Positions 9,565 to 25,641 of a stretch of 64,000 nucleotides of DNA are shown in pieces. The stretch is from the NCBI GenBank assembly GCA_015068925.1, contig SVJP01000001.1, positions 1,805 to 65,804 of the forward strand, read 5' to 3'. A program made the translations under genes and the position numbers. The notes under the pieces are model-generated. The model was not told where the DNA came from, did no database searches, and worked only from the letters and a program-made list of their open reading frames with translations. How positions within the stretch are numbered: the first letter of the stretch is position 1; the number at the start of each line of letters is the position of its first letter. Source of the stretch: Oscillospiraceae bacterium (lineage in GTDB: Bacteria > Bacillota > Clostridia > HGM11514).

Positions 9565-9909
9565 ATGCCTGGAACAAGAAAATTAGGCAGACCTACCGAT
9601 CAGCGTCGTGCTATGTTGAGATCTTTGACTACTTGTGTATTGGAAAACGGTCAGATTGTGACCACCGAAACCAGAGCAAAGGAAGCAAGAAGCATGGTGG
9701 AAAAGATGATTACATTGGGTAAAACCAATACATTGCATTCCAGAAGACAGGCGCTGGCATACATTACCAAAGAAGATGTGGTTAAGAAGCTGTTTGATGA
9801 AATTGCACCTAAGTATGCAGAAAGAAATGGCGGATACACCAGAATCATTAAAATGGGTCCCCGCAGAGGTGACGCAGCTCCCATGGCTGTTTTGCAGTTG
9901 GTGGACTAA
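9565..9909 (+). CDS. rplQ: 50S ribosomal protein L17
   Basis: 114 aa. [35 protein letters not shown] is L17-like. Confidence 0.95.
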
Positions 9910-9922
9910 TCAGGTAATCAAA

Positions 9923-9955
9923 ACGACCAAAGCGAAATGCTTTGGTCGTTTTTTG
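9923..9955 (+). terminator. Rho-independent terminator of the alpha operon
   Basis: ACGACCAAAGC-gaaat-GCTTTGGTCGT followed by TTTTT. Confidence 0.75.
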
Positions 9956-10093: not shown

Positions 10094-12289
10094 TTATACT
10101 TCAATCATCATACGACTCAAGAATTCATCTTGATATTCATCAGACAAATTGACAAACGGTGCTGAAAAACCGCACACACGAACAATGATGTGTCTGTAAT
10201 TCTCCGGGTTTTTTCGAGCTTCAATAAGCTCATCACGATTTACTATATTAGGTTGAATTGCCTGAATGCCGCTTTGAGCCGCTGCAAGAAACAAGGCGAC
10301 AATATTGTCAATATCCAGCTTTCCTGCCGGCAATGTAAGAGTGATTGACGTACTGCAGGCAAACTTTGACATATCAAGCTGTTGAAGTGTATAAAGCAGT
10401 TCGGATACGGATATGGTCCGCTGAAGCCTTGAGGGGCTGAAGCCCTGACTTAAGTAATCACCCCTTCTTCTACCGTTAGGCATTGCCGGAACAGAATCTG
10501 CATTAAAAAGTATCTCAGTATAAAGATGGGAACCGAGACGAAGTTCTCCTTGTTGTGCCATAGGCAAATCTCTTGTAATATCATAGATATCATCAATCAG
10601 TCGTTTTACAAGAGAGATTGATTCTTCTGAGCCATCACCGTAGGAGGGTGCATTTGTTGACATTAGTCGAAGTTCTTCGTTTTGCCATTCAAGTCTGCAT
10701 TGATTAAAAAGCTCTGAGACGGTGCACGCTTTTTTGTCAAAGCAAAGATGTTTTATCGCCAGAAGAGAATCAACCGCATCTGCAAAGAACATTAAATACG
10801 CGGTTTCTCTGTTATATTTACCACCGTTGTTTGTTATATCCTTCAGATTTTCGATACATGGCTTCATAAGGGCAGACAAAGCTCCTACAGGATTTACCTC
10901 GTGCCATACGCGTGTGCCTCTTGAAATTATCATATGCTTATGCATGAACATACGACGTAAAAACCCGATATACCTTACATACAGTTCTTCAAAGCTTTTG
11001 CATTCCTCAAGAGATTCAAAGTAAATCTCGTGCTTTCGCATAAGACTTGTATTATTGTGTATCGACCATTGTAACGGTTTCAAAATATCGACATATTCTC
11101 CGCTGTTATGTATTGAAACATCGCCGGTCAGAATATCCCAGCACCCACCAACGCTGTAGTTGAGTGCATCCTCTCTATCGATTCCGGACCGAATAAGTGC
11201 CGGAATAATGGAATCATCATTAGAGTAAAGACTGAAGCTTTTTCCCTGCATCAAAGGTTCAAATATAAGCTTGAGATATTCCCTGGGAGATTTTTGCGAA
11301 AAGCGGAGCATCATCTTCGGATATATAATATCCTCATTCTCTCTTGCTTTGAGAAACAGTCTTGTAACTCCATTAAATACAGGATTTCCTTCACTGTCAC
11401 ATCCGCCAAGAGTAAGTGTGTTTTCAAGCTCTTGCTCATAGGCATCTGAGATAACTGCCTCTCTTTTAAACAAGCAATCCTGTACTAATAAAAATTTCGT
11501 AACAAGATTAAGCATTTCGTCAGTCGTGACACCGTTTTTTAAATCATTTTCATACAGAGGAGCAAGTAAAACATCTACCCTGCCAAAGGAACTGAATCCC
11601 ATTCCTTCAAGAATACCCAGTGATTTTCGCATAAACGCAAGAGTACACAAGCCCTCGTGAAGTGTTTTCGGAGGATAAATCGGGATACGATTCGCAATTT
11701 CTGAAAGTTCATCGCATCCTACCTCTTTCAGTGCAACAGCAAATTTTTTTGACATTTTACAAAGAGCGTTTATCCCTGCCGTGCAGCAATCGATAAACTC
11801 GACCTGGGTTTCATCAGTACATCTGTTTTTAGCATCGCGAAGCTCGGAAAGAATCCCCGAAAGACCAATTTTGAAAACCTTTTCAAATGGAAGCTGAAGA
11901 TGCATCATATCCGCATATATTCCGGACTGAAGATACATGCCGCCACTGAAAATCATCCTGGCGTGAGGATCAATATCTGTAAAAAGATGACAATTTCTCA
12001 GATAAAGCCATCCATTGGCGTGATTCATACTGCGATTGAATTTACCGTCACCTCTCGGATGAAGCATACCTGCCTCGAAATAAAAAGGAATGTCTTTGAA
12101 TATAACAGGCTTTGCAGCATCAACAATAGCATCATAAAGCTTTGATTTCAGCTTATACGACGATAGATTGGGGTTTTCAGCGTCATAAGCGTCCATCACT
12201 GCGTAAACCTTCTCTGTCGCTTTGGCTGCGGACTCCGCCATCATACCGTGGTAGTATTCACTAAGCTCTTTTCTGATTTTTTTATACAT
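10094..12289 (-). CDS. Glycyl radical enzyme of the pyruvate formate-lyase superfamily, unknown specificity
   Basis: 733 aa from the MYKK start, which lies 5 nt after AAAGGAGG. The C-terminus ARKNPENYRHIIVRVCGFSAPFVNLSDEYQDEFLSRMMIEV matches the GRE glycine-radical region (RVxG[YF]...F..L...Q.E). The conserved P.GRR.GD.LS.G.SP segment lies upstream of it. The candidate Cys loop is NYSVGGCWDI. Confidence 0.85.
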   Translation of the reverse strand: MYKKIRKELSEYYHGMMAESAAKATEKVYAVMDAYDAENPNLSSYKLKSKLYDAIVDAAKPVIFKDIPFYFEAGMLHPRGDGKFNRSMNHANGWLYLRNCHLFTDIDPHARMIFSGGMYLQSGIYADMMHLQLPFEKVFKIGLSGILSELRDAKNRCTDETQVEFIDCCTAGINALCKMSKKFAVALKEVGCDELSEIANRIPIYPPKTLHEGLCTLAFMRKSLGILEGMGFSSFGRVDVLLAPLYENDLKNGVTTDEMLNLVTKFLLVQDCLFKREAVISDAYEQELENTLTLGGCDSEGNPVFNGVTRLFLKARENEDIIYPKMMLRFSQKSPREYLKLIFEPLMQGKSFSLYSNDDSIIPALIRSGIDREDALNYSVGGCWDILTGDVSIHNSGEYVDILKPLQWSIHNNTSLMRKHEIYFESLEECKSFEELYVRYIGFLRRMFMHKHMIISRGTRVWHEVNPVGALSALMKPCIENLKDITNNGGKYNRETAYLMFFADAVDSLLAIKHLCFDKKACTVSELFNQCRLEWQNEELRLMSTNAPSYGDGSEESISLVKRLIDDIYDITRDLPMAQQGELRLGSHLYTEILFNADSVPAMPNGRRRGDYLSQGFSPSRLQRTISVSELLYTLQQLDMSKFACSTSITLTLPAGKLDIDNIVALFLAAAQSGIQAIQPNIVNRDELIEARKNPENYRHIIVRVCGFSAPFVNLSDEYQDEFLSRMMIEV

Positions 12290-12434
12290 ATCTACGCCTC
12301 CTTTTATGATTATAAAACATAAATTTTCTATTACAATAGATTGTAATTTGTTTGTTGTACTTATTATATTATACCACAGGCAAAGTGAATTAGAATAGAC
12401 AATATGAATAATTTGTATAAAAGGGAACAATTTA

Positions 12435-12463
12435 TTGACAAAATATCATAATTATGCTATTAT
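12435..12463 (+). promoter_or_regulatory. Candidate sigma-A promoter for the AraC-family gene
   Basis: TTGACA, a 17 nt spacer, then TATTAT, about 20 nt upstream of the ATG at 12483. Confidence 0.4.
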
Positions 12464-12482
12464 ATTTGTAAAAAAGGGGTAA

Positions 12483-13259
12483 ATGATTATGAAGATAACA
12501 ATAAATTCAATACAGTCAATATACCGCTACAAAACAGACAGAAAAGCCTTCAAAGCTGCAAATCCAACCCGTAGCTTTCACATTCTTTCCTATCAGGAAT
12601 ACGGTCACTACGATCACTATGTGAACGGAAAAGAAATACCCGTAAAAAAAGATATGATATTCTTTATAAACGGGAATGACAACTATAGCGTAAAATGTCG
12701 CGAATACGGAGAATCGCTTTGCATAACTTTTGTTGGTGAAACAGTTTTTCCAACGATGACGATTGATTGCGCGGACAATCCGGAAATCAAAAACCTTTTT
12801 CGAAAACTTACGAAGCTGGGAAACATTGATTTGGACTACAACGCACTGAAAGCTTCAGCTATAATGTACGAAATTTTTGCCTATATGTCAAAAAAGGAAA
12901 ACTCAGAATATGTTTCACCGGACAAACGCGGAAAAATAAAAGAAATTCATTCCTATATTTACGAAAATTACAAAAAAGAGCTTCCAAATTCTTCAGAACT
13001 GTCAGCAAAATGCGGTATTGCTCCGAAATACTTCAGGACGCTTTTCAGGAAAATGTATGGGATAACCCCAACACAATATATCATAGAGTTAAGGCTCAAC
13101 GCCGCTGCAGAGCTTTTGTCGGAAGGAATTCTCAGTGTTGGAGAGGTTGCTGAAGCTGTTGGGTTTTCTGATGTTTATTATTTCAGTAAGCTATTCAAAA
13201 AGCATTTTCTTTCTTCACCAAAGAATTATAAAAGTGTGTCACGGGGACGGGACTCTTGA
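12483..13259 (+). CDS. AraC-family transcriptional regulator with a cupin-like sensor domain and a C-terminal double HTH
   Basis: 258 aa. The C-terminus YFRTLFRKMYGITPTQYIIELRLNAAAELL is a canonical AraC HTH. It is transcribed divergently from the glycyl radical enzyme. Confidence 0.85.
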   Translation: MIMKITINSIQSIYRYKTDRKAFKAANPTRSFHILSYQEYGHYDHYVNGKEIPVKKDMIFFINGNDNYSVKCREYGESLCITFVGETVFPTMTIDCADNPEIKNLFRKLTKLGNIDLDYNALKASAIMYEIFAYMSKKENSEYVSPDKRGKIKEIHSYIYENYKKELPNSSELSAKCGIAPKYFRTLFRKMYGITPTQYIIELRLNAAAELLSEGILSVGEVAEAVGFSDVYYFSKLFKKHFLSSPKNYKSVSRGRDS

Positions 13260-13461: not shown

Positions 13462-13662
13462 GAAATCATGGATTGAAAGTGAATAATGAATATGGATTTG
13501 AGTTTTATGTGCCGATAGGAAAGATAATTACGAAATGCTTGTTTGCTTTATATAGATGAGCCCGGATATGAAGATGACAAAGAAAAGTGTTTTCGCAGAG
13601 AAATGGAAGAGGCTTATGACTTATTGAAACCATTATGTGATAAAACATTAGGGAGAATTAAA

Positions 13663-14025
13663 ATGTTAAATAAATTATTAAAAAGTGTATTAGACCAAGA
13701 CACAGCCCCTGTGGTTGTTTGCGATATGGATGATATTATTGTGTATATGAATCCGTCAGCGATAGAGCGTTATCACAAGGATTTGACGGGCAAAAGTATT
13801 AAAGGCTGTCATCCTTCATCCGCCAACGAAATGATAGAAAAGGTTCTCGTATGGTTTGGAGAAAGTAAGGACAATAACATCATCTACACCTATCGCAATA
13901 ACGAGGAGAACAAAGATGTGTATATGGTTGCTCTTCGTGATGATGACGGTAGTCTAATCGGCTATTACGAAAAGCATGAGTATAGGAATAGAGAAACAGT
14001 TGGACTTTATCAGCCGAAGAAGTAA
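13663..14025 (+). CDS. Small PAS-fold-like protein, hypothetical
   Basis: 120 aa from the ATG preceded by TAGGGAGA. The sequence VVCDMDDIIVYMNPSAIERYHKD...GCHP resembles a PAS sensor core. The track ORF extends upstream to a TTG at 13543 with a poor Shine-Dalgarno site. Confidence 0.5.
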   Translation: MLNKLLKSVLDQDTAPVVVCDMDDIIVYMNPSAIERYHKDLTGKSIKGCHPSSANEMIEKVLVWFGESKDNNIIYTYRNNEENKDVYMVALRDDDGSLIGYYEKHEYRNRETVGLYQPKK

Positions 14026-14047
14026 TAAAATTTAACGAGGTTGTATT

Positions 14048-14527
14048 ATGGAAAATTTAAACTTTAGATACGCAACAGAAACTGATAGTGCATTGATCTT
14101 GGAATTTATCAGAGAATTGGCTAAATATGAAAATATGCTTGATGAAGTAATCGCCACTGAAGAACTTCTGAAAGAATGGATTTTTGAAAAGAAAAAAGCC
14201 GAGGTTATTTTTGCTTTAGAAGACGGAAAAGAGGTCGGATTTGCTCTCTTTTTCCATAATTTTTCTACATTTTTAGGTCGTGCAGGAATTTATTTAGAGG
14301 ATTTATTTGTTAAACCTGAATATAGAGGCAAAGGTTATGGCAAAGGACTTTTGAAAAAGCTTGCACAGATTGCAAAGAAAAGAGGCTGTGGAAGACTTGA
14401 ATGGTGGTGCCTTGACTGGAACAAACCAAGCATTGATTTTTATTTGTCCTTGGGTGCAGAGCCTATGGATGAGTGGACTACCTATCGCATTGCCGGAGAA
14501 ACTTTGGAGAAACTTGCAGAAGATTGA
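14048..14527 (+). CDS. GNAT-family N-acetyltransferase
   Basis: 159 aa. LFVKPEYRGKGYGKGLLKKLAQIAKKRGCGRLEW is the acetyl-CoA-binding motif A of GNAT proteins. Confidence 0.8.
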   Translation: MENLNFRYATETDSALILEFIRELAKYENMLDEVIATEELLKEWIFEKKKAEVIFALEDGKEVGFALFFHNFSTFLGRAGIYLEDLFVKPEYRGKGYGKGLLKKLAQIAKKRGCGRLEWWCLDWNKPSIDFYLSLGAEPMDEWTTYRIAGETLEKLAED

Positions 14528-14546: not shown

Positions 14547-14684
14547 TGAACGAAGAATGTTTCATTTGCAAAGCATCCCTTGAATATCCGGAAACGGATG
14601 TGATGATGGAATGTGTGGTTTGCCATAAAAAAGAAAACAGCGAAACAAGATGCGTGAATGGGCATTTCGTTGCCAAAAACTAAA
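14547..14684 (+). CDS. Possible 45 aa Cys-rich zinc-ribbon-like mini-protein
   Basis: MNEECFICKASLEYPETDVMMECVVCHKKENSETRCVNGHFVAKN with CxxC...CxxC...C..H spacing. Its 3' end overlaps the next ORF by 27 nt. No clear Shine-Dalgarno site. Confidence 0.25.
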
Positions 14685-15320
14685 ATAGCATTTATTTGTG
14701 TACATAATTCCTGCCGAAGTCAAATGGCAGAAGCTTTTGGGAAAGTGTATCTTTCTGAAAAATACGAGTGCTATCCCGCAGGAACAGAAACAAAACCACA
14801 GATAAATCAGGATGCCGTTCGAATTATGAAAGAGCATTTCGGCAACCGTGTGTGGTTTGTTGGCATGCAAGGGAGTTTTGCCCGTGGAGAAGCGACAGAA
14901 AACAGCGATATCGATATGGTCGTGATACTTGATGAATTATCACCATCAGATGTTGCGACCTATAACACAATGCTGGATCCCTTACCCCATAGAGAACTGA
15001 TTTGCGGTTTTCTTTCAGGGAAAAATGAAATTTTAAATTGGGAGCCATCTGACCTTTTCCAGTTTTATTATGATACAAAGCCCATAAAAGGAAGTCTTGA
15101 TGAACTCTTGCCATTGATTGATGATACTGCTGTCACAAGAGCAATAAAATTCGGTGCATGCAATATCTATCATGGCTGTGTTCACAATATGCTATATGAA
15201 AAAAGTGAAGATGTTTTGCGAGGCCTATATAAATCCGCATCTTTTTTCATTCAGGCAATCCCGTTCAAGCAAACGGGGAAATACATCAAACATCAGAAAG
15301 ATTTATTGGAATTTGTTTCC
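14658..15320 (+). pseudogene. In-frame chimera. About 60 aa of an arsenate-reductase (LMW-PTP type ArsC) N-terminus, joined to a minimal nucleotidyltransferase domain whose own N-terminus is missing.
   Basis: KIAFICVHNSCRSQMAEAFGKVYLSEKYECYPAG aligns with B. subtilis ArsC (CTGNSCRSQMAEGWAKQYL). It continues without a stop into VGMQGSFARGEATENSDIDMVVILDE, the GS..RG..x..SDID motif of ANT/Lnu-like nucleotidyltransferases. The frame then runs on to 15389 over the next fragment. Confidence 0.5.
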
Positions 15321-15324
15321 CCAA

Positions 15325-16356
15325 CGGGGAATTCGCATTGTGTTAGACGGCGTGTTTCATCATGTGGGCAGAGGTTTTTTCGCCTTTGAAGATGTGAAAC
15401 AACACAGAGATCAATCCCGTTACCGTGATTGGTTTTATCTGGATTTTAACGGAAACAGCTGTTACAATGACGGATTTTGGTACGAAGGTTGGGAAGGACA
15501 TTGTGAATTGGTCAAGCTGAATCTGCAAAACAGAGAAGTGCAGGATTATTTAATTTCCTGTGTAAAGCAATGGATGGATTGGTGGCAGATTGACGGACTT
15601 CGTCTGGATGTAGCCTATTTGGTAAATGAAGATTTTATGGGAAGGTTACGGGCAGAATGTTGTCAAAAAAATCCTGAATTTTTCTTGGTAGGTGAAATGA
15701 TTCACGGTGACTACAATCGTTTGTTGGGATTTTTACACAGTGTGACAAATTATGAATGTTATAAGGGATTGTATTCCGCTTTTAATTGCAACAATATGTT
15801 TGAAATCGGACATTCGATTCATCGTCAATTCGGAAGTGAACAATGGTGCTTATATCGGGAAAAGCAGTTGTTTTCCTTTGCGGATAATCATGATGTGACC
15901 AGAATTGCTTCAATATTACAAAATAAAAATCACCTTCCTCTTGTGTTTGGTTTTCTGTTGGGAATGCCCGGGATTCCTTGTATTTATTACGGCAGTGAAT
16001 GGGGAATCGAAGGAGAAAAACAACAGGGAGATGCCGCTTTGCGACCTGCATTGGAATTGCCTCAATGGAACGAATTAACAAAAGCAATCAGTCAATGGGC
16101 AAAGGTCAGACAACAAAGTATGGCACTGTCTAAAGGAAGTTTTCGGATTGCGGTCATGACCAATCAACAGATTGTGTTTGAACGGGAATATGAAGGAGAA
16201 CGGATGCTGGTTGCTTGCAACTGTGCAGACTATGAGTATTGCGCTCGGGGAGATATCAGAGCGGAAAATGTGAAAAATTTGGTAACAGAGGAAATGGTTT
16301 CCTTCTCCGACGGAATTGTAATGCCGCCTTACAGCCTTAGTTATTGGCAGGTATAA
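15325..16356 (+). pseudogene. 5'-truncated GH13 alpha-amylase-family gene, missing roughly the first 100 codons
   Basis: Homology starts at GIRIVLDGVFHHVG (GH13 region I), followed by IDGLRLDVAYLV (region II) and FADNHDVTR (region IV). The first 57 codons of the 15154 track ORF are read-through from another frame. Confidence 0.55.
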
Positions 16357-16404: not shown

Positions 16405-18087
16405 ATGTTTCGTACAGAAATGATTGAGAATTCTGACCATTCATATGATGTTGTTTTTTATTTGTCAGATTATAATGCATCCACAGAAGCAGCTTTGGAA
16501 TTTTTAACAAAAAGTCCAAGTTTTCGAAAAATTAGAAATATTGTATTGGTGGGGGCGATAACGGTGGTGATTCCCTTATCTCAGGTTGTTTCTAAATCAG
16601 ACCGCTATGCTATGAGCTATGTATTTTTCGGCACTTACAGTCAACAATTGGAATATATTTCTGTTACCCAGGGTTCCTTGGGAGTGATTTCTCCTTCATA
16701 TTTTAACTTAGACCAAAACGGACAGTTAGAACAGGTAACCATTTCTCATGATTTTATTGAAAGTGTTCATCAGCAGGGAATGAAGGTAGTGCCCTTTTTG
16801 AGCAATCATTGGGATCGGGCTTCCGGTGTTGCAGCGTTGGAAAATCGGGAACAGTTGGCAGAAGAATTGTACCAAATGATTATGGAGCATCATTTGGACG
16901 GGATTAATGTAGATATTGAAAATGTGTCAGAAAAATATCGGGATGCTTACACCGATTTAGTCCGCCTCCTTCGGGAAAAAATACCTGCCGACCGAGAGGT
17001 TTCTGTTGCTGTGGCAGCAAATCCCGAGGGGTGGACATTGGGTTGGCACGGTTCCTATGATTACAAAGCTTTGGGTGAAATTGCTGATCATTTATTTCTC
17101 ATGGCATATGATGAGCATTATCAGGGAGGAGAATCAGGACCGGTAGCAAGCTTATCTTTTGTTGAACAATCGATCCAATATGCATTACATTTTGTGCCGC
17201 GTGAAAAAATAGTGTTAGGCCTTCCTTTTTTTGGTCGCATCTGGTCGGAGAATGGCGAGATTTCGGGTCAAGGCATTTCTTGTCAAAGAATTGAGTCAAT
17301 CATTGCCCGATATGATGCAAAGGTGACTTATGACAGAGTAACAAGAAGTCCAAAGGCAGAATTCAGCTTAACAGAAGCAGACAATCTGGTGATTAATGGT
17401 CAGACTATGAAGCCTGGAAAATATGTCATTTGGTTTGAAAACAGCAATTCTTTAAAAGAAAAACTTGCATTAGTTGACAAGTACGAGTTGAAAGGTGCAG
17501 GTTCCTGGGCATTAGGTCAGGAAACGGCAGATGTTTGGGATTATTTTTCTCTTTGGCTGAACGGAAAATATTTTGAAGACATTGCCGGGCATTTTGCGGC
17601 AGATGCCATTTTGTCTTCTGCTGAAAAAGGATATATGGTAGGCGTGAATCATACTGCTTTTGCACCCGAGGAAGCCATGACTCGCGCTCAGGCAGCGGCA
17701 ATCTGTGCCAGAATGTTACACCTTTCTGAGGAATTAAGCCCTTATGCGGATACGAAAGGACATTGGGCAGAAAAACAAATCGGTGCTATGGCAAAAAAAG
17801 GCTTGCTTTTTGGATATGAGGACGGTACCTTTCGACCTGATGAAGAAATGACAAGAGAAGAGGTGGCATCCCTTCTTTATCGGGTGATTGGTGCAGAATA
17901 TGAAGATGAGTCATCTCCTTTTACCGATGTTTCGCCTCAGAGATGGTCCTATAAAGAAATCACGGCTTTAGCAGGAAAAAATATTCTTTCAGGATTTCCT
18001 GACGGCACCTTTCGACCCGAGGCTTTTCTGACCCGTGGAGAGATGGCATATTTAGTTCAACAGGTAGAAAAAAACATTGACAGTTAA
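16405..18087 (+). CDS. GH18-family glycoside hydrolase (chitinase or peptidoglycan-hydrolase-like) with three C-terminal SLH domains
   Basis: LDGINVDIENVSE is the GH18 DxxDxDxE catalytic motif. Three C-terminal repeats of about 55 aa (FEDIAGHFAADAI..., YADTKGHWAEKQI..., FTDVSPQRWSYKEI...) are S-layer homology domains. Confidence 0.8.
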   Translation: MFRTEMIENSDHSYDVVFYLSDYNASTEAALEFLTKSPSFRKIRNIVLVGAITVVIPLSQVVSKSDRYAMSYVFFGTYSQQLEYISVTQGSLGVISPSYFNLDQNGQLEQVTISHDFIESVHQQGMKVVPFLSNHWDRASGVAALENREQLAEELYQMIMEHHLDGINVDIENVSEKYRDAYTDLVRLLREKIPADREVSVAVAANPEGWTLGWHGSYDYKALGEIADHLFLMAYDEHYQGGESGPVASLSFVEQSIQYALHFVPREKIVLGLPFFGRIWSENGEISGQGISCQRIESIIARYDAKVTYDRVTRSPKAEFSLTEADNLVINGQTMKPGKYVIWFENSNSLKEKLALVDKYELKGAGSWALGQETADVWDYFSLWLNGKYFEDIAGHFAADAILSSAEKGYMVGVNHTAFAPEEAMTRAQAAAICARMLHLSEELSPYADTKGHWAEKQIGAMAKKGLLFGYEDGTFRPDEEMTREEVASLLYRVIGAEYEDESSPFTDVSPQRWSYKEITALAGKNILSGFPDGTFRPEAFLTRGEMAYLVQQVEKNIDS

Positions 18088-19174: not shown

Positions 19175-21502
19175 ATGAAAAAACGGTTGAGTTTGCTTTG
19201 TCTGGTATTTATTATAATCAGCAGTAATTGTTACGGTGTAGCGGCAGAATCTGAATTTGCAACTCGGGGAAAAGTGTTGGAAATGATTTTGACTGCTGCG
19301 GATGCTTACAACGAAGAAATTGAAGCCTCTGATATTATGAAGGGTGACGGAGATGGAAATTTACGGAAAAATGACCCTGTTCGTCGTGTGGAAGCAATGG
19401 CGATGCTCAGTCGCGCCTTCCCGAATTTGCCTGCTCCCACAGAATATCAACTGACCATTGGTAATTTTGGAAATGAATTTACTGATTTGCCTGATTGGGC
19501 AGTTTCAGATTTGGCGAATTTAAGGCAAGCAGGGATTATTGCAGGATATCCTGACGGTCGTTTAGGTGTGGATGACAATGTAACAGAAGAACAAATGGAA
19601 TTGTTGATTCGTCGTATCTGGGCGTATCTGGGCAGCAATTTGAAGGATAATTTTTATATGACACAAAACAAGCAATGGTTAGATACCACAACGTTGTCTG
19701 CCGCTGATTTGTCTGTAGGAACCTTTTATGATGTCAGTCAAGTTACTTCGCAGCAGTTGGAAACCGTTATTATGGAGATGGTAGAAGGAGATTGGAAAGA
19801 AGATACCAAAGAACAAAGAGTTAAGGATTTTTATACTGCAGCAGCAGATGTGAATGCTCGAAATGGGCAGGGGATTAAACCCATTCAAGTACCGCTTCAA
19901 AGGATTGATGAGGCAAAATCCTTAAGCGAGTTATTGTACGTTCATGCTTATATATGCGAGGCTACCGGAAATATCAACATTTTGGGAATGTTTTCTGATG
20001 TTGATATAAAAAGCGGTGCATCTTATGTGGCATACGTGAGTGGAATGTCCGGAATTTTGGAAAAAGCTTATTTTGAAACAGAGGACCCGACAGCAAAGGA
20101 AGCATACCTGAATCTGGTTTCCGATACTTTGGAATTGGGCGGAGAATCAGCGAAAGATGCGGATGCGCATGCTGCTATGATGTATGAGATGGAGCGAGAA
20201 ATTGCTCTTGCCTCTTTGGACCTGAAGGATTATTATGATTTTGAGAAAACTTATGCCCGTTATGAATTCAGGGAATTTGCAAACTTACTGGATGGAAATG
20301 TACCGTGGTTTTTAATTACACCATGGGACAAAGGGGGCTTCTTTGTCTTGACAGACGAAGGCAGAGTGTTAAAAACCATTGAATTTTTGAAGGAAGAAAA
20401 TCTGGAAACAATAAAAAGTTATTTAAAATTCTGGCTTTTGCAGGATTCTGCTTCTTTGCTGTCCCAAGATATGCAACAGCCTTACATTGATTTTGTCAAG
20501 GCTATGTATGACGTAGAGATTCCTCTTGATCCGAAAGGGAATGCGGTTTCATTGGTGCAAACGTATTTACCGGAATGTTTGGAAGAGGATTATGCCAAAC
20601 GGTTTTGTTCTCCCGAAATTAAAGAAAAGGCAACTGCTCTTGTCAATCAACTAAAGGATGATTTTAAGATAAGGCTGGAACGTGCAGACTGGTTAAGTGT
20701 TACTACCCGCAACAACGCCATTGAAAAATTAGACCACATGATAGTCAATGTAGCATATCCGAAAGAGTTTTATGATATCTTTGAAGGGGTTACGTTTGAC
20801 GGTGATTTGTTCGCTAATGCTACTGTAATCAAATCCTTTTATGCTTATGTCAGTCAGGAAATGATTGGAGAAAAAACAGATCATACTTTGTGGCCTATGT
20901 ATTGCTATACGGTAAATGCAGCCTATATGCCAAATTATAACTCCATTACCATTCCTGCAGGAATTTTACAAGCACCCTTTTATGATGAGGATGCAAAGGA
21001 GGAGGAAAATCTTGCGGGAATCGGCGTGGTTATCGGACACGAGATTACCCACGCGTTTGATTCTTCCGGTGCTGATTATGATAAAAACGGAGCATATCAT
21101 AGTTGGTGGACGGAACAGGATCGAACTGTATTTGAGGAAAAATGCAAAAAGGTAGAATTGTTGTATGATGGTGTGGAAATCAGCAATCATGCCAAATGCG
21201 ATGGTGAATTAACCCTGTCGGAAAATATTGCTGATTTGGGCGGTATGGCAAGTGCATTGGATGTGATGAAAACCTTGGATGCTCCGGATTATCAATTGTT
21301 TTTCACTCATTATGCTACTGTCTGGAGACAGTATAGCCGTCAGAATTACGTAAATTATCTTGCTGAAAACGATGTTCATTCACCGGAGTTTTTGCGGGTT
21401 AATCATGTGGTCAAGAATTTCGGAGAGTTTTATGATGCATTTGATATTCAGCCGGGAGACGGAATGTATTTGCCGCCTGAAGAAAGAATAACAATTTGGT
21501 AA
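19175..21502 (+). CDS. M13-family zinc metalloendopeptidase (PepO/neprilysin-like) with a signal peptide and an N-terminal SLH-like domain
   Basis: VIGHEITHAFD is the HExxH zinc site and ENIADLGG is the M13 signature. The N-terminus has a signal peptide and an SLH-like repeat (FTDLPDWAVSDLANLRQAGIIAGYPDGRLG). Confidence 0.85.
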   Translation: MKKRLSLLCLVFIIISSNCYGVAAESEFATRGKVLEMILTAADAYNEEIEASDIMKGDGDGNLRKNDPVRRVEAMAMLSRAFPNLPAPTEYQLTIGNFGNEFTDLPDWAVSDLANLRQAGIIAGYPDGRLGVDDNVTEEQMELLIRRIWAYLGSNLKDNFYMTQNKQWLDTTTLSAADLSVGTFYDVSQVTSQQLETVIMEMVEGDWKEDTKEQRVKDFYTAAADVNARNGQGIKPIQVPLQRIDEAKSLSELLYVHAYICEATGNINILGMFSDVDIKSGASYVAYVSGMSGILEKAYFETEDPTAKEAYLNLVSDTLELGGESAKDADAHAAMMYEMEREIALASLDLKDYYDFEKTYARYEFREFANLLDGNVPWFLITPWDKGGFFVLTDEGRVLKTIEFLKEENLETIKSYLKFWLLQDSASLLSQDMQQPYIDFVKAMYDVEIPLDPKGNAVSLVQTYLPECLEEDYAKRFCSPEIKEKATALVNQLKDDFKIRLERADWLSVTTRNNAIEKLDHMIVNVAYPKEFYDIFEGVTFDGDLFANATVIKSFYAYVSQEMIGEKTDHTLWPMYCYTVNAAYMPNYNSITIPAGILQAPFYDEDAKEEENLAGIGVVIGHEITHAFDSSGADYDKNGAYHSWWTEQDRTVFEEKCKKVELLYDGVEISNHAKCDGELTLSENIADLGGMASALDVMKTLDAPDYQLFFTHYATVWRQYSRQNYVNYLAENDVHSPEFLRVNHVVKNFGEFYDAFDIQPGDGMYLPPEERITIW

Positions 21503-24240: not shown

Positions 24241-25641
24241 ATGGCAGAGAATAAAAATACAAAGAGTCAGCATATTTCCAAGCAGGAAATTGACCGTCAA
24301 AAACAGTATATGCAGCAGGTGGCAGACCTTTCTCTGACCGGTCGTATGGCGTGTGTTCAGACCTATGGATGTCAGCAAAACGAAAATGATTCCAGAAGAA
24401 TCTGCGGAATGTTGAAGGAAATGGGTTTTATGTTTACCGATGACCTGAATCAGGCGGATTTGATTGTGTTTAATACCTGTGCGGTGCGGGAAAATGCAGA
24501 GCTGAAGGTGTATGGAAAAGTGGGTGCCCTCAAGCATCATAAACGCCGTAAGCCTTCTTTGAAAATTGCTTTGTGCGGATGTATGACTCAGCAAGAGCAG
24601 GTGGCTATGACCATCAAACGAAAATATCCTCATGTGGATATGGTATTCGGCACCCATGCCTTGTACCGTTTTCCTGAAATTTTATATCGTTCCTATCAGG
24701 AGGAACGTGTGTTTGAAACAGAATCCTTTGACGGTGCCATCGCGGAGGATTTGCCGATTTTACGGGACAACCCTGTGAAGGCAGGTGTGTCGGTGATGTA
24801 TGGTTGTAACAATTTTTGTTCTTATTGCATTGTGCCTTATGTAAGGGGCAGAGAACGAAGTCGCGAAAAGTACGATGTGCTCAAAGAAGTCAGGCAGACG
24901 GTGGAATCCGGCATCAGCGAAGTGATGCTGTTGGGGCAAAATGTAAATTCCTATGCAGGAGGATGCGATTTTGCAGATTTGCTTTCTGAGGTTGCGCAAA
25001 CCCCGGGACTTCGCAGAATTCGGTTTATGACATCTCATCCCAAGGATATCAGCGAAAAGCTGGTGCGGACTATGGCAGAATTTCCCAATATCTGCAATCA
25101 GCTTCATTTGCCTTTTCAATCGGGGAACAATCGGGTGCTTCAGGTGATGAATCGGAAATATACCCGTGAGCATTATTTAGAGCTGATTACCATGGTTCGT
25201 TCGTATCTTCCCGATGTGGTGTTGAGCAGCGATGTGATTGTGGGATTCCCCGGTGAAACGGATGCCGAATTTGAAGATACCCTGTCGTTGGTGGAGCAGG
25301 TGCGGTATGACAGCTTATTTACTTTTATTTATTCCAAGCGTCACGGTACCCCAGCGGCAACCATGGAGGATTTTGCCACAGAAGAGGATAAATCGAGACG
25401 GTTTGGGAAATTATTAGATTTGCAAAACCGAATTTCACGGGAAATTAATGAATCTTATGTAGGAAAAACCTTTGAACTTCTGATAGAAGGTGCCGCAAAG
25501 CATGAGAAAGCAATGCTTGCAGGGCGGACAGAAGGAAATAAATTGGTTCATTTAAAAGGGTCAGAAGAACTGACTGGACAATATATTAATGTAACAATAA
25601 CAGAGGCACAAACCTGGTCTCTGATTGGTGAAAGGAGTTAA
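24241..25641 (+). CDS. miaB: tRNA-i6A37 methylthiotransferase MiaB
   Basis: 466 aa. MACVQTYGCQQNENDS is the MTTase N-domain, GCNNFCSYC is the radical-SAM CxxxCxxC, and a TRAM-like C-terminus follows. Confidence 0.9.
   Translation: MAENKNTKSQHISKQEIDRQKQYMQQVADLSLTGRMACVQTYGCQQNENDSRRICGMLKEMGFMFTDDLNQADLIVFNTCAVRENAELKVYGKVGALKHHKRRKPSLKIALCGCMTQQEQVAMTIKRKYPHVDMVFGTHALYRFPEILYRSYQEERVFETESFDGAIAEDLPILRDNPVKAGVSVMYGCNNFCSYCIVPYVRGRERSREKYDVLKEVRQTVESGISEVMLLGQNVNSYAGGCDFADLLSEVAQTPGLRRIRFMTSHPKDISEKLVRTMAEFPNICNQLHLPFQSGNNRVLQVMNRKYTREHYLELITMVRSYLPDVVLSSDVIVGFPGETDAEFEDTLSLVEQVRYDSLFTFIYSKRHGTPAATMEDFATEEDKSRRFGKLLDLQNRISREINESYVGKTFELLIEGAAKHEKAMLAGRTEGNKLVHLKGSEELTGQYINVTITEAQTWSLIGERS

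Follow-up and report, generated by a model that had tools for sequence, protein, structure and literature searches.

Introduction

Glycyl radical enzymes (GREs) carry out consequential anaerobic reactions of the gut microbiome, which give trimethylamine, p-cresol, skatole, and H2S precursors. The described GREs that come closest to the locus reported here are the 1,2-eliminases, namely B12-independent glycerol dehydratase (GDH, 1R8W), CutC (5FAU), propanediol dehydratase (PD, 5I2G), and HypD (6VXC). These enzymes have 787–850 aa and are folded as a 10-stranded barrel. Their Cys loop contains one catalytic Cys, their Gly loop is of the type RVxG[YF], and their activases carry ferredoxin-like Cys clusters. 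The isomerases YbiW/PflD and HplG (8ID7, 8ID0, 7VUA) share this fold, are members of the PFL2-like group, and are encoded in small operons without microcompartments; they act on sugar-derived or ring substrates. The arylacetate decarboxylases (HPAD, IAD, PAD, and AAD; 800–900 aa) are encoded in compact operons of enzyme and activase without a downstream pathway; their substrate is permeant and their product is excreted. PFL2 from Archaeoglobus fulgidus (2F3O, 776 aa) is an archaeal, hyperthermophilic protein for which we know of no pairing with an AraC regulator. Its function is disputed or unassigned, whole GRE clades still lack experimental validation, and all GRE eliminases and isomerases keep a CXE motif, the Glu of which hydrogen-bonds the substrate (PMC13450708, a 2026 review). 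Here we describe a GRE gene and its divergent AraC-type regulator gene from a metagenome-assembled genome (MAG) of an Oscillospiraceae bacterium. Both lie in a 64-kb stretch of contig SVJP01000001.1, which is referred to as the window and to which coordinates refer unless another locus is named.

In our best explanation, to which we assign a probability of about 0.6, the locus is a self-contained, substrate-inducible module of two genes, the AraC regulator and the GRE, from a GRE family that is large and uncharacterised and occurs in uncultured gut Clostridia. Literature searches (GRE with AraC, GRE with Oscillospiraceae/Christensenellaceae, and recent GRE papers) revealed no published description of this family.

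An intact glycyl radical enzyme with a C-W-D Cys loop

The window protein is an intact GRE of the PFL-like branch. It matches PF02901 with 232.9 bits (cut-off 24.3) and the Gly_radical domain PF01228 with 50.2 bits (cut-off 22.2). With 55 relatives as input, AlphaFold2 gave a model with a pLDDT of 93.9 and a pTM of 0.93, and when this model was compared by Foldseek with CutC, GDH, PD, and HypD, TM scores of 0.84–0.87 were obtained at an identity of just 15–21%.

Both radical loops are found where a first-pass annotation, made from the sequence alone, had placed them. In alignments with solved structures, made by phmmer and with profiles, RVCG707FSA aligns on RVAGYSA of GDH, on RVAGW of A. fulgidus PFL2, and also on CutC; Arg704 and Gly707 are invariant (55/55 family members). 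An aminoacyl radical enzyme, in which Gly is replaced by Ala, Ser, or Thr, is excluded by the presence and invariance of Gly707. The loop NYSVGGC383WD aligns column by column on DYGIIGC433VE435 of GDH, the chain numbering of which was confirmed to reproduce the published Cys433/Glu435, and on the Cys loops of CutC and PFL2. The Cys is found in all 55 members and Trp384 in 54, while position 385 is occupied by Asp (45), Gly (7), Glu (2), or Asn (1). The C-W-D motif pointed out in that annotation, which takes the place of CXE, is thus real and conserved in the family. By contrast, RVCGF does not deserve the attention it had received as an unusual variant, as RVCGFSA is the family consensus (59/85). 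A Cys at this position also occurs in class III ribonucleotide reductase (RVCGYLG), and Phe follows the Gly in HPAD and IBSS (PMC13450708).

The mechanically called open reading frame (ORF) extends over 10094..12430 on the minus strand. The real coding sequence (CDS) starts with the ATG at 12289, ahead of which is the ribosome-binding site AAAGGAGG, and ends with the stop codon at 10094–10096. The protein has 731 aa, two fewer than originally counted, and it is indeed shorter than the solved PFL-like GREs that it matched (chains of 759–1150 aa). It is identical to GenBank MBE7041888.1, labelled "hypothetical protein E7399_00130" from a Ruminococcaceae/Oscillospiraceae MAG.

Comparison with characterised glycyl radical enzymes

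None of the NCBIfam models came near its cut-off. The equivalog scores (cut-offs in brackets) are 199.4 bits for HpsG (1000), 172.3 for CutC (1050), 163.2 for HypD (1100), 155.6 for HpfG (1000), 154.6 for PRK09983 (1109), 120.7 for IAD NF033718 (1100), and 98.4 for HPAD NF033715 (1150). The best NCBIfam match is the broad PFL2-3 subfamily model TIGR01774, with 214.8 bits versus a cut-off of 678, and the pyruvate formate-lyase (PFL) model TIGR01255 matches only the C-terminus (41.9 bits versus 994.2). When a family profile was compared to solved GREs, it scored 375 bits with CutC, 356 with GDH, 342 with PFL2, 327 with PD, and 321 with HypD. The isomerases followed with 268–315 bits, and the decarboxylases and X-succinate synthases with 186–255 bits; the lowest scores among full-length solved GREs were those of HPAD (186 bits) and then the X-succinate synthases (BSS with 201 bits).

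The ranking of these profile scores, the TM scores, and the correspondence of His130 to GDH His164 would all agree with a divergent member of a characterised class, be it a dehydratase of glycerol, propanediol, or hydroxyproline, CutC, IslA/HpsG, an isomerase of the YbiW/PflD type, PFL, or an arylacetate decarboxylase. We nevertheless consider such an assignment very improbable. No equivalog model reaches 200 bits, with cut-offs of 994 or more, solved GREs are 15–21% identical, C-W-D replaces CXE with the Asp itself being replaced by Gly, Ser, or Asn in relatives, and the CC pair of PFL type is absent. The pocket is altered as well, with Phe232 for GDH His281, Glu289 for Tyr339, and Ser396 for Asp447; His588/Asn is found for Tyr640, while Ser233 is kept (GDH Ser282), as is His130. 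GDH His164 has been proposed to protonate the hydroxyl group that leaves (PMC13450708). Neither microcompartment nor small-subunit, transporter, or downstream-enzyme genes were found near the window GRE. The expectation that this is a GRE of unassigned chemistry has therefore held: with scores far below the NCBIfam cut-offs and about 20% identity to solved GREs, it clusters with no characterised class.

The individual classes differ from the window GRE in distinct ways. It shares with the 1,2-eliminases the fold, the single Cys, the type of Gly loop, the counterpart of His164, and the ferredoxin-like Cys clusters in the activases of its family. It differs by its shorter N-terminal region, by the C-W-D motif, by Glu289 in place of the essential Phe395 of CutC and of GDH Tyr339, and by being paired with AraC without microcompartment, aldehyde dehydrogenase, or transporter genes. 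A. fulgidus PFL2 is the best single-sequence match in the PDB (1.1e-48) and comes close to the window GRE in length, but it keeps GCVE. The isomerases likewise keep CXE (Glu443, Glu433, and Glu429). HPAD has a comparable Gly loop (RVAGF), but requires a small subunit.

Three classes were considered separately and rejected. PFL/2-ketobutyrate formate-lyase has two adjacent Cys residues where the window GRE has a single one (GGCWD), and TIGR01255 is far below its cut-off. For the arylacetate decarboxylases HPAD and IAD, the models are far below their cut-offs. HPAD is further characterised by a small subunit and by Glu505/Glu637, and no ORF for a small subunit lies between the GRE gene and its neighbours. 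The X-succinate synthases score low (BSS 201 bits, MasD 247 bits), and ORFs for beta/gamma accessory subunits are absent.

A second group of short, AraC-linked GREs (L007 2006–4168 and 5189–7345; L036 18175–20343; L numbers designate the loci compared) occurs in the same genomes as the window family, often in tandem with it. These sister proteins have 680–760 aa and a divergent AraC gene, and some have their own activase. They differ from the window family by scoring only about 260–330 bits with its profile, by keeping CXE (GCNE, GCVE, GCYE), and by Gly loops of the type RVTG[FY]SD or RVCGWN[AV]; several adjoin a gene for a short-chain dehydrogenase/reductase (SDR). The adjacency to an SDR gene is found repeatedly for sister GREs of 680–730 aa (GCNE/GCVE; RVTG[FY]S[DG] or RIGGFNA; L036 17437–20343, L069 5065–7911, L080 5747–8550, L083 2912–5709), which hints at a carbonyl product or substrate of the sister family.

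A large family with a recurrent cassette

About 107 clusters at 90% identity (733–750 aa) came out of a word-indexed sequence search; they are all unnamed or "hypothetical" and derive from MAGs of Clostridia, Ruminococcaceae, and Lachnospiraceae. When GTDB species genomes were scanned with family-specific peptide patterns, at least 530 encoding stretches were found. In an exhaustive profile search, about 65 clusters at 50% identity aligned over their full length before scores merged with those of generic GREs. The loci examined are the best 80 of the at least 530 GTDB matches. They originate from 77 MAGs, all of which represent uncultured gut Clostridia (Oscillospiraceae, Acutalibacteraceae, Christensenellaceae, and "Eubacteriales"). 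The hosts were ruminants, other animals, and humans, with Hadza and UMGS bins among the last.

The architecture was surveyed for 86 family genes in the fetched loci using hidden Markov models built for the purpose; 80 genes could be evaluated for AraC and 77 for the activase. A divergent AraC gene is located upstream of the GRE gene in 73 of 80 cases, and an activase gene directly downstream in 45 of 77. This activase has about 262 aa, carries the motif GCPLxCxWCHNPE and two ferredoxin-like Cys clusters, and matches TIGR02494 with 249–273 bits (cut-off 174). Based on these frequencies, the ancestral unit is taken to be an AraC gene diverging from a GRE gene that is followed by the activase gene.

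In several loci, two to four AraC-GRE cassettes are arranged in tandem (L007/L008/L010 2006–12193; also L035, L036, L039, and L084). The GREs of such an array are from different subfamilies and have one regulator each, and the array often contains just one activase or none. In a closer subfamily, with 47–52% identity to the window GRE, genes for ABC-type exporters directly follow the activase gene in several members (L016 9649–13171, L052 10709–14315, L029 8905–10709, L030 13033–13986; ABC_membrane and ABC_tran where checked).

The missing activase

The first-pass annotation had reported that no activase is encoded within 10 kb of the GRE gene. This can be extended to the complete window: a six-frame scan for CxxxCxxC revealed no GRE activase in the 64 kb. 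The matches were a MiaB-type methylthiotransferase (24241–25641; UPF0004, Radical_SAM, and TRAM) and two proteins which are not radical-SAM enzymes. A second GRE copy was not detected in the window by tblastn. The term "orphan", used there for the enzyme, applies to the window copy only, since the family activase is adjacent in 45 of 77 cases. With 32 of 77 family genes (42%) lacking an adjacent activase, the window copy is not exceptional.

Unlinked copies often adjoin paralogous AraC-GRE(-activase) cassettes (L035, L036, L038, L039, and L082, also L001 and L007), and in the MAG CAKSHM01 an unlinked copy (L034) occurs together with a linked one (L080). The closest relative, with 84% protein sequence identity to the window GRE, is from a water-buffalo caecum MAG (L007/L010), in which three consecutive AraC-GRE cassettes are found without an activase within 7–10 kb. 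The Gly loop RVCGFSA is common to unlinked (24 genes) and linked copies (35 genes). Cross-activation of GREs by an activase correlates with Gly-loop identity (PMC13450708).

It might be argued that the window GRE was stranded when its activase was lost, and is now non-functional or decaying. The lack of an activase in 64 kb would fit, as would the variable surroundings with decayed genes (the gene fusion at 14658–15389 described below, and gene content that differs from contig L091 after 13597). However, the ORF is intact and every residue that is invariant in the family is present. The dN/dS ratio of the GRE gene is 0.06 versus L091 and 0.14 versus L092, which are contigs with 97.5–98% nucleotide identity to the window. 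It is 0.07 versus L007, across 16% protein divergence, and neither of these two lineages has a linked activase. For the regulator, dN/dS is 0.06–0.26, and conservation extends beyond the regulator to the operator-like and −10 elements. Taking into account that 42% of the family genes are unlinked as well, we consider decay highly unlikely. Because unlinked copies are common, are found beside paralogous cassettes, and are under purifying selection, it is likely that the window GRE is activated in trans.

A candidate relocated carboxylate

Of the 55 family members, 53 have Glu289. In the alignments, this residue corresponds to Tyr339 of GDH and to Phe395 of CutC, and the spacing of 94 residues from Phe to Cys agrees with the published Phe395/Cys489. 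CutC Phe395 is an essential active-site residue (PMC4453576). The residue pairs at positions 385 and 289 are D/E (45 members), G/E (7), N/E (1), and E/S (2). For a wider view on covariation, the 134 GRE representatives at 50% identity nearest to the family were analysed. Where the Cys-loop Glu is lost, Glu289 is present in 13 and absent in 5; where it is kept, Glu289 is present in 2 and absent in 114 (Fisher p = 2e-12, with the 13 forming one clade and thus representing few independent events). Position 385 accepts Gly and Ser while Glu289 stays fixed, which marks Glu289 as a probably important carboxylate and suggests that the catalytic carboxylate may have moved from the Cys loop to this position.

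A second Cys (Cys297 in the motif LGGCD, 11399–11401 on the minus strand) is found in 49 of 55 family members. It lies in the strand after Glu289, at a place that reads GGQ in GDH and CutC, and about 7 residues along from the pocket position.

Regulator and promoter region

The regulator matches HTH_18 (71.3 bits) and HTH_AraC (53.6 bits), both above the cut-off, so that its assignment to AraC stands. The cupin sensor that had been attributed to it was detected only weakly and below threshold: the N-terminal half matches AraC_binding (PF02311) over profile positions 20–133 of 135 with E = 0.0044 and 17.2 bits (cut-off 21.1). Among 60 family regulators, 17 show this match, the best with E = 1.5e-5.

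The AraC-GRE intergenic regions of six members with 54–84% protein identity were aligned. They share a TATAAT, which in the window is part of a putative extended −10 element, and a candidate operator further upstream (see Table 1). A degenerate pattern derived for the latter, TGTTCCNTTTTNTRYAAA, occurs in 18 loci, once per locus, on the strand of the GRE gene and about 70–100 bp upstream of its start; the window contains one exact match. This layout is what would be expected for an activator-dependent promoter. Together with the pairing in 73 of 80 cases, the conserved operator-like element supports the earlier proposal that the GRE is probably controlled by a small molecule through a dedicated AraC regulator.

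The sequence ATTTGTA[A/T]AAAAGGG occurs twice in the intergenic region of the window (12411–12425 and 12464–12478, 53 bp apart), and the pair is also present in L007. One copy overlaps the operator-like element and the other adjoins the AraC start, which may reflect autoregulation or two binding sites.

Locus layout and the position after rplQ

The overall picture drawn from the sequence, an intact GRE gene with a divergent AraC gene after rplQ and a terminator-like hairpin, is confirmed. The coordinates are collected in Table 1. The identity of rplQ is supported by PF01196 (140.6 bits) and TIGR00059 (157.4 bits), and the gene pair begins 184 bp past it. The hairpin has a 15-pair stem with 6 GC pairs and a 3-nt loop, and on the plus strand it is preceded by an A-run and followed by a T-run. 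A separate canonical terminator for the GRE gene was not found.

Table 1. Features of the AraC-GRE locus in the 64-kb window
Feature	Coordinates	Strand	Remarks
rplQ (ribosomal protein L17)	9565..9909	+	Terminal gene of the ribosomal protein/rpoA cluster; delimits the locus on its upstream side
Hairpin, candidate bidirectional intrinsic terminator	9920..9952	.	Between the convergent rplQ and GRE genes
GRE CDS, 731 aa plus stop	10094..12289	−	Member of the GCW[DGS]/RVCGFSA family
Gly loop R704-V-C-G707-F	10166..10180	−	Gly707 is the predicted glycyl radical site
Cys loop G381-G-C383-W384-D385	11135..11149	−	Cys383 is the predicted thiyl radical residue
Glu289, motif E-L-E-N-T	11423..11425	−	Candidate relocated catalytic carboxylate
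His130	11900..11902	−	Invariant in the family; counterpart of GDH His164
Putative extended −10 element TGGTATAAT of the GRE gene	12365..12373	−	No recognisable −35; TATAAT conserved across six family loci
Operator-like 18-mer TGTTCCCTTTTATACAAA, candidate AraC site	12412..12429	−	About 40 bp upstream of the −10; conserved across the six-member alignment
Promoter-like site of the AraC gene, TTGACA-17-TATTAT with TG	12435..12463	+	11 of 12 positions; consensus match only
AraC/XylS-family regulator, 258 aa	12483..13259	+	Divergent from the GRE gene; HTH_18, HTH_AraC

In Firmicutes, rplQ is commonly followed by ecfA-ecfT-truA-rplM, and the first-pass annotation had based its suggestion of an insertion on this arrangement. 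The expectation fails for this lineage even without the GRE gene. In the nearest available relative (L090, from MAG GCA_045540615.1), which has an identical L17 protein and 91.4% nucleotide identity over 9.9 kb of the ribosomal cluster, homology to the window stops at 9923 and rplQ is then followed by rpsB (L090 10001–11775). Among the best 80 of the at least 530 matches, this MAG is represented by no ortholog with more than 61% identity to the window GRE; it holds a family member with 38% identity (L040).

A recently inserted mobile cassette which displaced the normal genes downstream of rplQ is a possibility that we regard with reserve. At the DNA level, the window is homologous to L007 over 10100–13233 only, which is exactly the GRE gene, the intergenic region, and the AraC gene, with unrelated sequence on both flanks. 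Across the family, the cassette is found in unrelated neighbourhoods, and GC content is 0.35–0.38 at 12–16 kb versus 0.41–0.47 in the ribosomal cluster. Considering also the break of homology in L090, we interpret the pair as a relocatable two-gene unit, the position of which after rplQ is specific to the lineage. However, there is no second flank: neither rpsB nor ecfA/ecfT/truA/rplM occurs in the 54 kb that follow, so that the site represents a lineage-specific junction or a rearrangement rather than a demonstrable clean insertion. Neither a transposase nor an integrase nor flanking repeats were found around 9.9–13.3 kb, and the window contains no mobile-element gene. The rplQ-GRE-AraC junction is carried by all seven metagenome contigs with 97–100% nucleotide identity and is thus fixed in the species-level lineage. 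The junction may reflect either a gain here or a loss or rearrangement in the relative.

Neighbouring genes

Past the AraC gene, the window (13597–14480) and contig L091 (4756–5530) differ in content, so that a strain-variable segment adjoins the cassette. In the window, a PAS-domain protein (13543–14025) and a GNAT protein (14048–14527) are encoded; L091 instead codes for a DUF5714 protein. The subsequent ORF (14658–15389, plus strand) joins an N-terminal LMWPc/arsenate-reductase-like segment to a nucleotidyltransferase domain. These are two genes (128 aa and 219 aa) in L091 (5534–6582), which is 97% identical. As about 260 bp of L091 (5709–5967) are missing from the window according to BLAST, the ORF is considered a deletion-derived fusion or a pseudogene.

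It is overlapped by 236 bp by an ORF of the alpha-amylase family (15154–16356, plus strand, 400 aa, GTG start). This matches the Pfam catalytic domain from profile position 78 only and may be N-terminally truncated. Two cell-surface enzymes with S-layer homology domains follow on the plus strand, with a calcineurin-like phosphoesterase gene between them: a GH18 family protein of the chitinase/endo-beta-N-acetylglucosaminidase type (16405–18087) and an M13 (PepO-like) metallopeptidase (19175–21502).

A link to glycan degradation, based on GH20, GH3, GH38, GH39, and GH18 proteins in the first loci, was dropped because it was unsupported by the census of flanking ORFs. SDR genes were counted in 9 loci (mostly beside sister paralogues), ABC exporters in 9, and beta-lactamase-fold proteins in 7. 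Clustering of 542 neighbouring ORFs revealed no conserved partner gene.

Proposed function

We propose that the AraC protein would bind a small molecule and then, through the element at 12412–12429, switch on the GRE promoter with its extended −10 but without a −35. The GRE would be converted to its active form when a ferredoxin-domain radical-SAM activase (TIGR02494) abstracts a hydrogen atom from Gly707. The gene for this activase is not linked in the window lineage, and the enzyme would have to be supplied in trans from another part of the genome. In catalysis, Glu289 and His130 may provide acid/base help, rather than Asp385, which appears dispensable given that relatives have Gly, Ser, or Asn at this position. 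As for the reaction, an elimination or isomerisation on a hydroxylated substrate is a tentative suggestion, and we give the same weight to a reaction that is neither of these nor a decarboxylation; a decarboxylation appears unlikely. A cassette devoid of transporter, microcompartment, and downstream enzyme fits a permeant substrate with an excreted product, or a product that enters central metabolism.

Some observations weigh against the self-contained, substrate-inducible module that we favour. An activase from the MAG of the window is not among the best 120 of 6958 matches to the activase from L011, the closest relative with a linked activase (E ≤ 1e-40). The only Ruminococcaceae-labelled activase among these 120 is MBE6912647.1, an accession far from MBE7041888.1. 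A conserved transporter or downstream enzyme is lacking, as none of the 149 Pfam families detected in 139 flanking ORFs occurs in more than 5 of them. The promoter and operator were assigned from sequence conservation. The association of Glu289 with the altered Cys loop largely reflects a single clade, and may go back to one or two evolutionary events instead of repeated covariation; the predicted proximity of Glu289 to Cys383 follows from alignment to residues known to line the pockets of CutC and GDH.

One may go further and view the GCW[D/G/S] plus Glu289 clade as a new functional GRE class. Its catalytic carboxylate would be on a barrel strand, at the CutC Phe395/GDH Tyr339 position, and it would perform a new GRE reaction on a membrane-permeant or pathway-independent substrate, being deployed in gut Clostridia as AraC-gated arrays of paralogues that share one activase in trans. 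This extended proposal is speculative and, taken as a whole, rather unlikely.

The locus opens up one of the GRE clades that await validation, with at least 530 loci and with a departure from the CXE rule of the characterised eliminases and isomerases. Two ideas that arise from it can be tested. An acid/base residue may be able to move within the GRE pocket, as suggested for Glu289, and one activase may serve several paralogous GREs, which bears on the open question of activase specificity. With its dedicated AraC regulator and the conserved candidate operator, the family would also offer a practical route to the substrate by means of a reporter screen.

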